A DNA stretch of 4,877 nt from a virus. Its lineage: Duplodnaviria; Heunggongvirae; Uroviricota; Caudoviricetes. Shown one piece after another: positions 1,358 to 4,877 of the stretch (position 1 is its first letter; each line of letters begins with the position of its first letter). The stretch lies in the IMG/VR virus record IMGVR_UViG_2690316278_000003; one strand, given 5' to 3'. A program made the translations under genes and the position numbers. Under the pieces are notes generated by a model. It ran no database searches. It saw nothing but the letters and a program-made list of their open reading frames with translations, and was not told the origin of the DNA.

Positions 1358-1636
1358 TTACCTCCAGATCCGTTGCTGGAATGTGCGGGACGGACGCGTT
1401 GGCCGTTCGGAGTAAGGGAGCCTGACGGAGATTATCCAGTGACGGTAGTCGAGGCTAAGGGCTTTTTTAACCTCGCATCCGCGCCTGCGGTAACACTGAA
1501 TGAGCCATTCGGCCTGTTCTTCAGTGCATGGGGGATGCTGGTACCAATCAGATTTAAATGCGTGAGAGCGCCGCCCGTGCCTGCTGGCAAAGACGGCTGA
1601 ATTATCAGAATTGTGTAGTCTGGAATTTTGCGCCAT
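1358..1636 (-). CDS. hypothetical small protein (92 aa), translationally coupled to the downstream YdfU-like gene
   Basis: ATG at 1636 preceded by GGAGAAAGCCG (SD-like), the same initiation context used by the 200-aa gene in the other module copy. Stop TAA at 1360..1358 abuts the YdfU-like start. Unusually rich in rare AGG/AGA codons, so coding status is uncertain. Confidence 0.45.
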   Translation of the reverse strand: MAQNSRLHNSDNSAVFASRHGRRSHAFKSDWYQHPPCTEEQAEWLIQCYRRRGCEVKKALSLDYRHWIISVRLPYSERPTRPSRTFQQRIWR

Positions 1637-1702
1637 CGGCTTTCTCCGGTGGCACAGTGTTACTCAACAGGGGTTCAGCCCTGCGCTGAATTGTAGATGA
1701 AT

Positions 1703-1963
1703 TCACTCATCTTCAAAAGCAGAAAAACCAGCCTTAATCCCAGCTTCTTTCAGAGACGGCAACGATGTGACAAATTCATTTGCACGCGAAATAAAACCAT
1801 CCGTCACAAGCCCATCCACAAAATGAATTAACGCAGCTCCACTCTTCCTTTGTTGAGACTGTAAACATTTAATACGGCAGTGGCTGACAATAGCGCCATT
1901 CTCAACGCGCACAGTATAGAGGCCATCTTCACTAAAAATTTCACGTAATTCTTCGATTTTCAT
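1703..1963 (-). CDS. Rem-like small phage protein (86 aa), paralog of the ORF at 4295..4582
   Basis: ATG at 1963..1961 with GGAAGGA SD 8 nt upstream; begins MKIEELREIFSEDGLYTVRVENGAIVSHCRIKCLQSQQRKSG. About 85% identical at its N-terminus to the second copy. Placement directly downstream of hok mirrors the hokD-rem arrangement of the K-12 Qin prophage (recalled synteny, not a sequence match). Confidence 0.7.
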   Translation of the reverse strand: MKIEELREIFSEDGLYTVRVENGAIVSHCRIKCLQSQQRKSGAALIHFVDGLVTDGFISRANEFVTSLPSLKEAGIKAGFSAFEDE

Positions 1964-2083
1964 CAACAGAATCCTTCCAGATAAATAGCACTCCCCTGTT
2001 CGGGGTCCATCCCTCTTCTCCCTGCGCGCTACTTAAGTATTTTTGATTCTATTCCGGCACCATCTAAAACTTCAAACGCGTTG

Positions 2084-2115
2084 AAAATAAAAACAAAAAC
2101 CCGCCGAAGCGGGTT
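2084..2115 (-). terminator. Rho-independent terminator downstream of hok copy 1
   Basis: Minus strand reads CCCGC-TTCG-GCGGG followed by TTTTTGTTTTTATTTT (plus-strand stem 2100-2104/2109-2113, A-tract 2084-2099). Confidence 0.6.
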
Positions 2116-2183
2116 AAGTGTGGGTGCATTGAGGATGCCTGACCCATCAGAGGTGGCGAGGGATTTCTCCCCCGCCTGGTCTC

Positions 2184-2339
2184 TTACTCCTCAGGTTCGT
2201 AAGCTGTGAAGACAGCGACCTCCGTCTGGCCGGTTCGAATTCGTACCTCGCAGAGGTCTTTCCTCGTTACCAGTGCCGTCACTATGACGGTTAAACAGAT
2301 GACGATCAGGGCGATTAACATCGCCTTTTGCTGCTTCAT
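2184..2339 (-). CDS. hok: Hok/Gef-family type I membrane toxin (51 aa)
   Basis: Hand translation from ATG 2339..2337: MKQQKAMLIALIVICLTVIVTALVTRKDLCEVRIRTGQTEVAVFTAYEPEE, matching the Hok/Gef family and closely the HokD/RelF sequence as recalled. Strong SD AAGGAGAAG upstream. The track ORF 2184..2396 is the same frame with a 19-codon in-frame upstream extension (MNGKSRLASYVPKGKEKQA) that lacks an SD. Confidence 0.9.
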   Translation of the reverse strand: MKQQKAMLIALIVICLTVIVTALVTRKDLCEVRIRTGQTEVAVFTAYEPEE

Positions 2340-2404
2340 AGCCTGCTTCTCCTTGCCTTTCGGCACGTAAGAGGCTAACCTAGATTTGCCGTTCATAGAT
2401 TGAG

Positions 2405-2469
2405 CCAGGAATCGAACTGGTGACCTACTGATTACAAGTCAGTTGCTCTGCCTGCTGAGCTAAGTCGGC
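2405..2469 (-). pseudogene. 3'-truncated tRNA-Thr(UGU)-like pseudogene (about 65 nt of 5' tRNA body, no 3' acceptor strand)
   Basis: Minus strand GCCGACT-TA-GCTC-AGCAGGCA-GAGC-A-ACTGA-CTTGTAA-TCAGT-AGGTC-ACCAG-TTCGATT-CCTGG has D-arm, anticodon arm (UGU) and T-loop. The following 7 nt (CTCAATC) cannot pair with the 5' acceptor GCCGACT (1 of 7 pairs), the T-stem is also mismatched, and the CCA position is occupied by ATG. Confidence 0.55.
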
Positions 2470-3370: not shown

Positions 3371-3657
3371 AAATATCCCTCCTTTCTCCAGATTTCTTGT
3401 GTGCGAAAAACACCTTCTGCATGCATCAGGCGTAATTCTTCTTTGGTGTAATCGCTGGTTTTTACCCGCCCGTCGATTAAATCGTGGCACGAGCTACAGG
3501 CAATCGCTGCCTGCATATCGTGTGGCTTTATCGCTGTTCCGCACGTTCCCGCCAGTCGGTAATGCGCCAGCACAGACGTTTCCGGATCGTGATTGCAGTA
3601 GCCAGGAATTCTGACGGTGCACATCTGCCCCCGCGCCGCTTTACGTAAATCCACCAT
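3367..3657 (-). CDS. ybcO: YbcO-like (DUF1364) phage protein, putative nuclease, 96 aa
   Basis: MVDLRKAARGQMCTVRIPGYCNHDPETSVLAHYRLAGTCGTAIKPHD...IACSSCHDLIDGR matches the recalled DLP12 YbcO pattern (ADLRKAARG..C.VRIPG.CN..PETSVLAH.RL...). ATG at 3657..3655 overlaps the upstream TAA by 1 nt. Confidence 0.85.
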   Translation of the reverse strand: MVDLRKAARGQMCTVRIPGYCNHDPETSVLAHYRLAGTCGTAIKPHDMQAAIACSSCHDLIDGRVKTSDYTKEELRLMHAEGVFRTQEIWRKEGYL

Positions 3658-4256
3658 TACGCAAACTCCAGCAGCTGCGCGGCCACATTTTCGACTTGTT
3701 CCGGAGAGGAAAATTTACGGAACAGAATCCAGTTCCACAGCACATTCAGAACAGATTTATAAACCTGCTGAAACTCGGTTTCGTCCATATTCGCAAACGC
3801 GATAGATTTCGCCCGACACCCACGGCTACCGTCCGGATAAAAATGCTCGGTGTAAAATCCAGCCTGAATGGTTACCCACTCGCGAAAAGCCTCAAACGAC
3901 TTTAGCAATGCCGTATCCCGGGTTCTGCGTGTCGCAACTGTATTCAGATATTGCTCTGCGGCTTCGCTCAGAGCTGGCGTATGTTCCCGGCCTACTGATT
4001 CACACAGGTAATCAACGAAACCGGACACCAGTTTTCGTTCGCGAGGCGTGATCGCCCCACCGACCGGAGTCCAGTAATCGAAACCCAGTTGCAGGAGTTT
4101 GAAAAAACGCTTGTGGAATGCGTAGTTACACACACGCTTAAAGTCTGCGTGTATCCACTCACCTATTTTGATTTGATGCAGAAAATCGCAACTCTCCGGC
4201 GTCGCCGGGAGAAGTAATCCGGAAGAGGTTTGTTTGACCAGTTGTATATGTGCCAT
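3657..4256 (-). CDS. Hypothetical phage nin-region protein (200 aa), possibly DUF1367-family
   Basis: ATG at 4256..4254 preceded by GGAGAAAGCCG; product begins MAHIQLVKQTSSGLLLPATPE. Continuous ORF to TAA at 3659..3657, coupled to ybcO. The track's 14-codon 5' extension has no SD. The DUF1367 suggestion rests on typical prophage gene order and is unverified. Confidence 0.7.
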   Translation of the reverse strand: MAHIQLVKQTSSGLLLPATPESCDFLHQIKIGEWIHADFKRVCNYAFHKRFFKLLQLGFDYWTPVGGAITPRERKLVSGFVDYLCESVGREHTPALSEAAEQYLNTVATRRTRDTALLKSFEAFREWVTIQAGFYTEHFYPDGSRGCRAKSIAFANMDETEFQQVYKSVLNVLWNWILFRKFSSPEQVENVAAQLLEFA

Positions 4257-4294
4257 CGGCTTTCTCCGGTGGCACGGTGTTACACAGCAGGAGT

Positions 4295-4582
4295 TCAATC
4301 CTGCTCAAGATTGTAGATGAGTTTATTCTTCAGCAAAAGCAGAAAACCAGCCTTAAAACCAATCTCTTTCAAAACCCGTAATGATGTGACAAATTCGTCC
4401 TCACGCAAAATAAAACCGTCCGTCAGAAGTCCATTACAAAAATAAAATAACACAGCACCGCTCTTCCTTTGTTGAGATTGCAAACATCTAATGCGGCAAT
4501 GGCTGACAATCGCTCCATTCTCAACGCGCACAGCATAGAGGCCATTTTCACTAAAAATTTCACGCAATTCTTCGATTTTCAT
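4295..4582 (-). CDS. Rem-like small phage protein, second copy (95 aa, divergent extended C-terminus)
   Basis: ATG at 4582..4580 with GGAAGGA SD; MKIEELREIFSENGLYAVRVENGAIVSHCRIRCLQSQQRKSG. Paralog of 1703..1963; the C-terminus differs after KAGF because of a 1-nt difference in a homopolymer. Confidence 0.7.
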   Translation of the reverse strand: MKIEELREIFSENGLYAVRVENGAIVSHCRIRCLQSQQRKSGAVLFYFCNGLLTDGFILREDEFVTSLRVLKEIGFKAGFLLLLKNKLIYNLEQD

Positions 4583-4700
4583 CTTCAGAATCCTTCCAGA
4601 TAAATAGCTCTCCCCTGTTCGGGGTCCATCCCTCTTCTCCCTGCGCGCTACTTAAGTGAGTCGATTCTATCTGCGAAGGTGCGCGAATCAAATTCACCGG

Positions 4701-4754
4701 AAATAAACAACAAAAAACCCGCCGAAACGCTGAGAGATCACAGCGATGGGCGGG
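4701..4754 (-). terminator. Rho-independent terminator downstream of hok copy 2 (extended two-part stem)
   Basis: Plus-strand CCCGCC (4718-4723) pairs with GGCGGG (4749-4754), with an inner CGCTG/CAGCG stem. On the minus strand it is followed by a T-rich tract (plus-strand A-tract 4701-4717). Positional homolog of the 2084-2115 terminator. Confidence 0.5.
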
Positions 4755-4831
4755 TTAAGTGCGGGTGCGTTGAGGATGCCTGACACATCAGAGGTGGGCG
4801 GGGATGGGATCAGCTCCCCGCCCGGTCACTC

Positions 4832-4877
4832 TTACTTCCTGGATTCGTAGTCTACGAAGACAGCGACCTCCGTCTGG
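4832..4877 (-). CDS. hok: Hok-family toxin, second copy, partial (C-terminal 15 codons plus stop; rest beyond the right edge)
   Basis: Minus-strand translation of 4877..4832 gives ...QTEVAVFVDYESRK then TAA, homologous to the C-terminus of hok copy 1 (QTEVAVFTAYEPEE) and other Hok/Gef proteins. Embedded in the duplicated module. Confidence 0.7.
   Translation of the reverse strand, partial: QTEVAVFVDYESRK

Follow-up and report, generated by a model that had tools for sequence, protein, structure and literature searches.

The viral record IMGVR_UViG_2690316278_000003 (IMG/VR; Caudoviricetes) is a DNA stretch of 4,877 nucleotides (nt), hereafter the window, which is the entire 4877-bp contig CXCB01000306.1 of the draft assembly GCA_001255415.1 in reverse orientation. 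All of its genes lie on the minus strand and the reading order runs from 4877 to 1. Two modules made of the genes hok and rem follow one another in it, first copy B and then copy A, and each stands ahead of a different cassette of the nin type. An earlier note, made from the sequence alone, took this arrangement for a tandem duplication and mentioned an assembly collapse or chimera as a caveat. We found that the window consists of pieces that match three different prophage loci, with a non-homologous junction at position 2407, and the caveat has become the explanation that we consider likely. The features of the window are as follows (aa, amino acids; ORF, open reading frame; UTR, untranslated region; SD, Shine-Dalgarno sequence).

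1–297, minus: rusA, codons 1–99 of 126, truncated at the contig end (Pfam RusA, E = 1.9e-15).
298–1356, minus: DUF968/YdfU-like HNH nuclease, 352 aa, cassette A (Pfam DUF968, 2.6e-62; PHROG 96, HNH endonuclease).
1358–1636, minus: 92-aa ORF, gene 1 of cassette A (PHROG 1212, function unknown, 7e-35; no match in the Pfam search).
1637–1702, minus: linker A, a CUGAAC-loop hairpin followed by a hairpin that would occlude the SD and AUG of the 92-aa ORF, with its 3′ arm reaching 1630 (fold z = -2.4).
1703–1963, minus: rem copy A, 86 aa counted from the ATG (PF27490 Rem on record; PHROG 340).
1964–2075, minus: rem leader A with promoter-like site TTGAAG-18-TAGAAT (leader 70/71 identical to copy B).
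2094–2186, minus: hok A 3′UTR and intrinsic terminator (terminator-like site 2115–2098).
2184–2396, minus: mok/hok copy A (hok coding sequence 2184–2339), leader cut 5 nt before the mok ATG (Pfam HOK_GEF, 3e-23).
2406–2408, no strand: non-homologous junction; A-type sequence reaches 2406, base 2407 is an orphan and the tRNA block begins at 2408.
2408–2469, minus: tRNA-Thr(TGT), 62 of 76 nt, lacking the 3′ acceptor end (partial Rfam tRNA match, model positions 8–63).
2472–2548, minus: tRNA-Arg(TCT) (ARAGORN, Rfam).
2550–2626, minus: tRNA with CAT anticodon, tRNA-Ile in RefSeq relatives (ARAGORN, Rfam).
2816–3370, minus: DUF1133 Q-like antiterminator, 184 aa, cassette B (Pfam DUF1133, 2e-107, 356.7 bits; Phage_antitermQ, 29.4 bits against a cut-off of 26; PHROG 753).
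3367–3657, minus: YbcO (DUF1364) putative nuclease, 96 aa (Pfam YbcO, 7.7e-45).
3657–4256, minus: DUF1367, 199 aa, a mosaic allele private to this contig (Pfam, 9.1e-96; PHROG 319, labelled NinB/Orf-like).
4257–4322, minus: linker B, the two hairpins of linker A again, their stems altered by compensatory changes (fold z = -4.3).
4295–4582, minus: rem copy B, 95 aa, with a different C-terminus owing to a 1-nt indel (PF27490 on record; PHROG 340).
4583–4691, minus: rem leader B with promoter-like site TTGATT-16-TAGAAT.
4712–4877, minus: hok copy B, 3′UTR and terminator at 4712–4834, last 15 codons and stop at 4832–4877.

All of these components are of known kinds, and the gene content reported in the earlier note agrees with ours: DUF1367, YbcO, a Q-like gene and tRNAs behind copy B, and the 92-aa ORF, DUF968/YdfU and RusA behind copy A. 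Two of the claimed tRNAs (anticodons CAT and TCT) are intact; the third, tRNA-Thr(TGT), is short of 14 nt at its 3′ end, does not form a complete cloverleaf and is not called by ARAGORN. Of the two hok copies, the internal one is without most of its 5′ leader.

Self-comparison of the window gives collinear direct repeats at 1629–2229 and 4249–4877 with an offset of about 2620–2650 nt, so the same hok-rem module does occur twice, as had been noticed. The repeat blocks are 1629–1745/4249–4365 (78%), 1724–2023/4343–4642 (86%), 2084–2111/4702–4729, 2109–2164/4750–4805 (89%) and 2181–2229/4829–4877 (82%), and the repeat is real and far above chance. Identity between the copies, taken by segment from a global alignment, is very uneven. 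It is 79% in the 3′ end of the hok coding sequence, 65% with 30 gapped columns in the hok 3′UTR and terminator, and 34% in the spacer containing the -35. It rises to 70/71 (99%) in the rem leader, is 83% in the rem coding sequence, where a 1-nt indel near the 3′ end alters the C-terminus (86/87 versus 95 aa), and is again 83% in the linker, which holds the hairpins downstream of rem and the SD. The opening ATGGC of the cassette gene is shared completely (5/5), and the 70 nt behind it are at chance level (39%). The first cassette genes thus both begin with Met-Ala and then diverge, as previously described. The similarity does not end exactly at the start codon, however, but 5–7 nt inside the cassette gene.

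Two adjacent direct copies, 1629–2229 and 4249–4877, agree with a tandem duplication; the other facts do not. The copies are not each other's closest relatives, being 34–99% identical by segment and separated by indels, while each matches a different external prophage locus at 99.7–100%; and the joint lies outside the repeat. The claim of a tandem duplication has to be given up, and the two modules are old paralogues that had already diverged before they met here.

If the copies come from different places, then we can ask: Where does each part of the contig belong? Loci that we fetched are designated below by L numbers. Window 1–2406 is 100% identical to the prophage remnant linked to ompW in L011 (CP064376), and also, except for a 250-bp deletion there, to the same region in nine other chromosomes including CP000038, which we take to be Shigella sonnei Ss046 (HE616528 is presumably S. 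sonnei 53G). Window 2408–4877 is 99.7% identical to a prophage of E. coli FDAARGOS_944. Finished S. sonnei genomes hold the material in three loci, which are A and two forms of cassette B, here called the S-type and the E-type. The S-type has the order hok, insertion sequence (IS) IS1, 70-aa gene, DUF1367, YbcO, DUF1133, tRNA-Ile/Arg/Thr/Gly, IS (CP104423, CBDDMI01). In CP104423 about 125 kb separates A from the S-type copy of B; both are on the same strand, and A is the upstream one. The E-type has the order QueH, hok, rem, DUF1367, YbcO, DUF1133, and a transposase gene follows where its match to the window ends. This end is at window-equivalent 2556 in 53G (HE616528), L111, L020 and L023, of which L020 and L023 have no further tRNAs after it, and at 3950 in L112, L113 and L116.

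The right part of the window is itself a mosaic of these two forms. Positions 3950–4877 are 100% identical to the truncated E-type copies, 3861–3918 carry S-type alleles, 3798–3846 carry E-type alleles, and 2408–3797 are identical to the S-type; within the last segment, the S-type copy is the only one in S. sonnei that has the tRNA-Arg/Thr stretch (2408–2555) in one contiguous piece. The interval of the first E-to-S switch, 3990–3918, encloses the 3950 break point. No fetched locus holds window 3790–3949 exactly, and the DUF1367 protein of the contig is found in this contig only among the 153 billion gene positions on record. However, an IMG/VR allele (L091) shares the combination at 3840–3870, which indicates that natural mosaic DUF1367 alleles exist. 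The mosaic could be either a gene conversion between resident copies or an artefact of assembly consensus. Popping of a bubble between two reference DUF1367 alleles was considered as its source and dropped, because the switch at 3846–3861 is only 15 nt wide.

Another draft contig, L116 (CXIN01000012.1 of GCA_001258575.1, positions 5677–6791), has a similar accession prefix. It reads through an IS by which the E-type DUF1367 is cut short at window-equivalent 3950 and then enters prophage replication genes; in the finished L112 and L113 an integrase fragment and an ABC transporter come after that IS. This may be either a lineage difference or another mis-join bridging an IS.

The joint between the two halves was located to the base. 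The tRNA side matches through a sequence ending in GGTCACCAGTTCGATTCC (2408), the hok side matches from GGCTCAATCTATGAACGG onward (2406), and 2407 belongs to neither. The two sides share GG at most, that is, no more than 2 nt of microhomology plus one orphan base. The normal tRNA-Thr continues with GGTAGTCGGCACCA, and then follows tRNA-Gly; in the window these 3′ 14 nt are replaced by sequence of the hok leader. Every finished genome examined has tRNA-Thr as well as the hok leader intact.

This joint is neither at the boundary of a duplicated unit nor within homology. It sits where the T-arm of tRNA-Thr meets the hok leader, and this point is outside the repeat; therefore unequal homologous exchange between the repeats, offered earlier as a cause, cannot have made it. 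Two other origins were also rejected. IS ends do not account for the 2407 break points, since finished S. sonnei genomes show no interruption of tRNA-Thr or of the hok leader, and the break points flanked by transposase genes (3950 and 2556) concern the E-type copy only. An integrase-type insertion at the 3′ end of tRNA-Thr fails because the sequence past the break does not restore the 3′ end of the tRNA.

The breaks were also placed relative to exact repeats. The last 56 nt of the phage tRNA-Thr form an exact repeat with the chromosomal thrU, and the break falls 42 nt into it. On the other side, the leaders of hok A and hok B are identical for more than 60 nt upstream of the break, which is 3 nt from the start of an island specific to the hok A leader (TCAATCTATGAACGGC). 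Finally, the contig end at 4877 is 22 nt into a 30-nt exact repeat between hok A and hok B, with a 115-nt exact repeat just beyond in hok. The runs into exact repeats are thus 22 nt (4877 end), 42 nt (tRNA-Thr break) and 3 nt (hok side), and no consistent k-mer size emerges from them. As an observation aside, the whole prophage tRNA-Thr(UGU) (L002, 5987–6062) differs from K-12 thrU (L016) at two D-loop positions only, and its 56 identical 3′ nt make it an exact dispersed repeat.

The joint is also private to the contig. No place spanning the junction was found in 5,426 complete E. coli genomes by megablast with window 2150–2700 or with the whole window, and the 33-mer across 2407 is absent from the GTDB species representatives, IMG/VR and the metagenomes of the Joint Genome Institute (JGI). 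The arrangement of the two modules in series has zero occurrences outside this contig in the collections and finished-genome contexts searched.

The junction also affects the hok locus. The 70-aa mok/hok ORF at 2184–2396 matches PF01848 with 81.6 bits (cut-off 22) and belongs to the Hok/Gef family with an overlapping mok. The complete leader with the Sok region is missing from the window, where the Rfam sok family RF01794 reaches 19.5 bits, below its gathering score of 59. The native A locus (L011, CP064376, 8848–9023) scores 112.4 bits; the window holds this element only from 8951 onward and so lacks 103 of its 176 nt, which in the native locus lie upstream as leader. Compared with the hok/sok loci of plasmid R1 and of the E. 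coli chromosome, the window shares the Hok and Mok frames and the 3′ fold-back and terminator region; in contrast to them, its internal copy is without the part of the leader that encodes Sok, and its other copy is cut by the contig end. Weak matches to the Rfam families isrK and rsmX fall in the 3′UTR and terminator region of hok A. Together with those to Trp_leader and Plastid-ycf2 they are all below gathering scores and lie on terminators or on the antisense strand of tRNAs.

As for rem, both small ORFs are on record as PF27490 Rem and match PHROG 340; a search of the local Pfam library gave no match for either. By sequence membership both belong to the Rem family. Rem of K-12 is an antirepressor of DicA in the Qin prophage (PMC10448788), and this was shown for K-12 Rem only. 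The rem leader is about 75 nt long with its own promoter-like site, whose -10 TAGAAT is invariant in 21 variants across loci, and it is at this -10 that the similarity of the rem region starts, in front of which at least six different contexts were seen. The leader as a whole has no significant fold (z = 0.27). It contains a hairpin with the arms CCCC and GGGG around a loop and, in some variants only, an upstream ORF of 14–15 codons ending at the rem ATG; reading by eye, we found this ORF interrupted in the K-12 and L100 variants and did not retain it as a candidate.

The 250-bp deletion mentioned above removes window 1626–1875 in nine of the ten finished loci of S. sonnei type that we fetched (L005–L010 and L012–L014, at about 9731/9732); the undeleted form is that of the window and of L011 (CP064376). 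Lost with it are two-thirds of rem (the 3′ part), the linker and the beginning of the 92-aa ORF; what remains is fused, and no microhomology is obvious at the end points.

Between rem and the cassette lies the linker. It is 66 nt long and folds into two hairpins in both copies, the whole element spanning 1630–1702 and 4250–4322 on the minus strand. We compared linkers associated with rem, three upstream contexts of DUF1367 without rem (IMG/VR contigs) and the 92-aa type without rem, the equivalents being taken from L003, L004, L017, L027, L028 and L029–L108. All of them have a -10-like hexamer (TACAAT, TATACT or TATAAT) and then the two hairpins. Hairpin 1 keeps a constant CUGAAC loop on a variable stem with compensating changes: GCAGGG/CCCUGU, GCAGGA/UCCUGC, GCGGGG/UCCCGC, GCCAG/CUGGC, GUCAG/CUGAC or GGG/CCC. 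Hairpin 2 has a 6-bp stem, GYGCCA...UGGCRC, with the SD in its loop, and the stem takes in the start codon and the next 4 nt. Its six outer pairs are paired in all 24 distinct linker sequences; one of them is CG in 18, UA in five and UG in one, and two others show single G-U changes. This covariation comes from few independent events and is modest. No Rfam family matches the linker.

Such a stem, including AUG and 4 nt, would explain why the similarity extends to ATGGC and why the unrelated DUF1367 and 92-aa ORF both begin with Met-Ala. We tentatively suggest, with the folding pattern in mind, that the linker might, beyond being a passive recombination linker, act in cis as a conserved and so far undescribed regulatory RNA where nin-type cassettes begin, though we would not put this above a possibility.

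It is useful to trace the modules and cassettes in other prophages, where each cassette is found singly behind hok, with or without rem, in many E. coli and Shigella strains; in this respect the view of the earlier note, that modules are exchanged at gene boundaries, was borne out. Cassette B occurs as hokD-rem-DUF1367-YbcO-DUF1133-tRNA(Ile, Arg, Thr, Gly)-holin-lysozyme in E. coli FDAARGOS_944, and singly also in the 'Rac' region of E. coli 442/2 (irsA/ybcO/q), in S. sonnei 53G and in others. From sequence membership and its position before tRNAs, holin and lysozyme in these relatives, DUF1133 is a putative antiterminator of Q type. On the window itself a promoter-like TTTGCA-18-TATTAT was seen at 2636–2665 (minus strand), upstream of tRNA(CAT) and downstream of the Q-like gene, which is the expected place of a late promoter. 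Cassette A occurs as hokD-(rem)-92aa-DUF968-RusA-Q in several E. coli strains, in K-12 Qin and in S. sonnei. The earlier proposal of another Q gene and lysis genes behind rusA was checked in the genomes identical to the left half of the window and was correct: these S. sonnei loci have a full 126-aa rusA, then a 273-aa Antiterm protein, a methyltransferase, three tRNAs and lysis genes.

The presence of rem is optional, as E2865 and FY26 have about 50 nt instead of window 1658–2088 between the hok terminator and the linker, and in Rac of 442/2 an A-like linker is combined with DUF1367. Among 80 IMG/VR contigs carrying DUF1367, hok lies upstream of it in 64 and rem of this kind in 25, and in none of the 80 does a hok lie beyond the tRNAs within the downstream flank. 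The exact DUF968 protein is present in 3132 blocks of the collection, with all 10 contexts shown being single-copy; the exact DUF968, DUF1133 and rem B proteins occur in thousands of blocks, and every finished-genome context shown is single-copy. On this distribution hok-rem is a shared module ahead of alternative nin/Q cassettes. Mosaicism at module boundaries, with a nin region between replication and late genes, is the established general picture for lambdoid phages.

Among known systems, K-12 Qin (hokD-rem-(remnant ORF)-ydfU-ydfT(quuQ)) has the same order and orientation as window 2396–1. It shares hok, rem with its conserved leader, the two-hairpin linker and then DUF968/YdfU and an antiterminator. 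In contrast to the window, no rusA is annotated between ydfU and the Q gene of Qin, whose hokD lies behind relBE, while hok A of the window is without the leader, lost at the tRNA junction. The prophages with QueH-hok-rem-DUF1367-YbcO-DUF1133-tRNA have the gene order of window 2408–4877; that of FDAARGOS_944 is 99.7% identical to this part, and the 53G-type copy 99.8% over 2556–4877. Unlike the window, they have a full-length tRNA-Thr with tRNA-Gly and lysis genes behind it (in Shigella, a transposase gene instead), and a second hok is never next. The lambda nin region likewise has recombination and nuclease functions between replication and late genes and then an antiterminator of Q type. On the window side the likeness consists of a PHROG labelled NinB/Orf-like, HNH-like nucleases and RusA, and of alternative cassettes behind shared boundary sequences; unlike in lambda, the boundary here is a structured element, the CUGAAC-loop hairpin followed by a hairpin that would occlude SD and AUG.

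How did the two modules come to stand in series? We consider it likely that an assembly, scaffolding or gap-closure chimera made the join rather than a biological tandem duplication. Positions 4877–3950 would then derive from the E-type cassette, 3949–2408 from the S-type apart from the short E-like patch, and 2406–1 from the ompW-linked A-type, the three pieces belonging to three separate defective lambdoid prophage loci of an isolate resembling S. sonnei. The modules would look alike since hok, rem with its promoter and leader, and the linker are shared lambdoid modules behind which nin/Q cassettes are swapped. A single non-homologous join at 2407 puts them in series. It truncates tRNA-Thr and strips the internal hok of its promoter, its 5′ leader and the region that encodes Sok. 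This join, and probably the E-to-S switch too, would have been made by the assembler or by scaffolding or gap closure through multi-copy prophage repeats, and the isolate itself would have no two tandem nin cassettes. What the contig is composed of, where its junction lies, that this junction is unique and that both elements are intact in finished genomes are direct observations; it is the cause, assembly and not biology, that we infer from them. A chimera is favoured because a single short draft contig unites sequence of three loci that lie apart in all finished relatives, because the switches lie at or near transposase-flanked break points and repeat edges, and because a private junction and a private, chimeric-looking allele occur within the same 5 kb. 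Break points on repeat edges are the pattern of an assembly graph; a random illegitimate crossover is not expected to choose them. Several points weigh against a chimera. The chief one is that no k-mer is common to both sides of the junction; a pure mis-walk in a de Bruijn graph normally needs shared sequence at the join, and reads containing the junction may therefore exist. The pattern of E, S (3861–3918) and E-like (3798–3846) segments is also unexplained by a choice between two reference alleles, and the allele L091 described above shows that natural mosaics exist. Moreover, the isolate might carry an uninterrupted E-type prophage like that of FDAARGOS_944, which is 99.7% identical over 2408–4877.

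The alternative is a real but private illegitimate joint, in which the end of the tRNA block of one cassette was fused to the hok leader of the ompW-linked remnant. Such an event is possible, though clearly less probable than a chimera. It could be the novel joint of a tandem duplication of about 125 kb or an excised circle, and could also have arisen by illegitimate insertion of an incoming E-type phage or by deletion in a rearranged chromosome. The joint has the illegitimate form, with 0–2 nt of microhomology and one inserted base, and graph assemblers normally emit only k-mers supported by reads. Since A precedes the S-type locus on one strand, a joint from the end of B to the start of A is the product expected of a tandem duplication of that interval; S. 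sonnei prophage regions are heavily rearranged, and DUF1367 alleles are naturally mosaic. Yet only one 4.9-kb draft contig has this joint, despite the thousands of collection blocks with the flanking proteins. Both break points are at the edges or in the interiors of exact genomic repeats, which is unexpected for a random event, and the same contig has a unique, chimeric-looking DUF1367 allele whose switch brackets the transposase-flanked break point of its relatives. A duplication joint should also break the contig at branch points, but the contig runs through. A local tandem duplication, or unequal homologous recombination at hok-rem with later exchange of the downstream cassette, agrees with the presence of two direct copies that are about 2.6 kb apart and share their internal order; we regard it as very improbable, since the copies are 14–66% different by segment and have several indels, and each is 99.7–100% identical to a separately located prophage locus, a crossover inside the repeat would yield one hybrid module and not two, and the real joint is outside the repeat, in the tRNA and the hok leader. 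Least credible of all is a stable natural phage architecture with two nin/Q cassettes in series. Its analogue is E. coli FY26, with DUF968-RusA-Q-methyltransferase-tRNAs-hokD-90aa-DUF968-RusA-Q-tRNAs, which shares with the window phage tRNAs followed by hokD and a second cassette (DUF968-RusA-Q-tRNA) but differs by about 450 bp between tRNA and hokD, a longer hok leader and the lack of rem. The FY26 joint is itself a singleton among the 5,426 genomes, and no second hok follows the tRNAs in the 80 DUF1367 viral contigs or in the finished-genome contexts examined. Being a singleton at the start of its record and among partial duplicates, FY26 was not accepted as proof of serial cassettes.

The FY26 record deserves a separate remark. 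Its beginning (L120, NZ_CP101741.1, 1–22000) holds two serial nin/Q/tRNA cassettes with three full hokD genes, two of them about 220 bp apart, and one partial hokD, and its end (L119) holds repeated partial tail-tip and J pseudogenes. The prophage cluster of this strain may be poorly resolved or truly scrambled.

If the joint in the window were real, hok A would be without its promoter and Sok-encoding leader and would be transcribed only by read-through from the region of the tRNA and late promoter, and the second nin/Q cassette, too, would be read only by the late transcript of the first cassette through the tRNAs. It would then be a small private curiosity. With a chimera as the likely explanation, the case becomes a caution: short draft contigs from genomes rich in prophages and IS, such as those of Shigella, can mimic duplications or new operon architectures, and a single contig of this kind is not to be read as biology without read-level or long-read support. 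A by-product of more lasting value is that the boundaries of hok, rem and the nin cassette are sharply defined, the last of them coinciding with a hairpin that would occlude SD and AUG. If the linker is regulatory, then the exchange of cassettes would be constrained to retain this translational gate.

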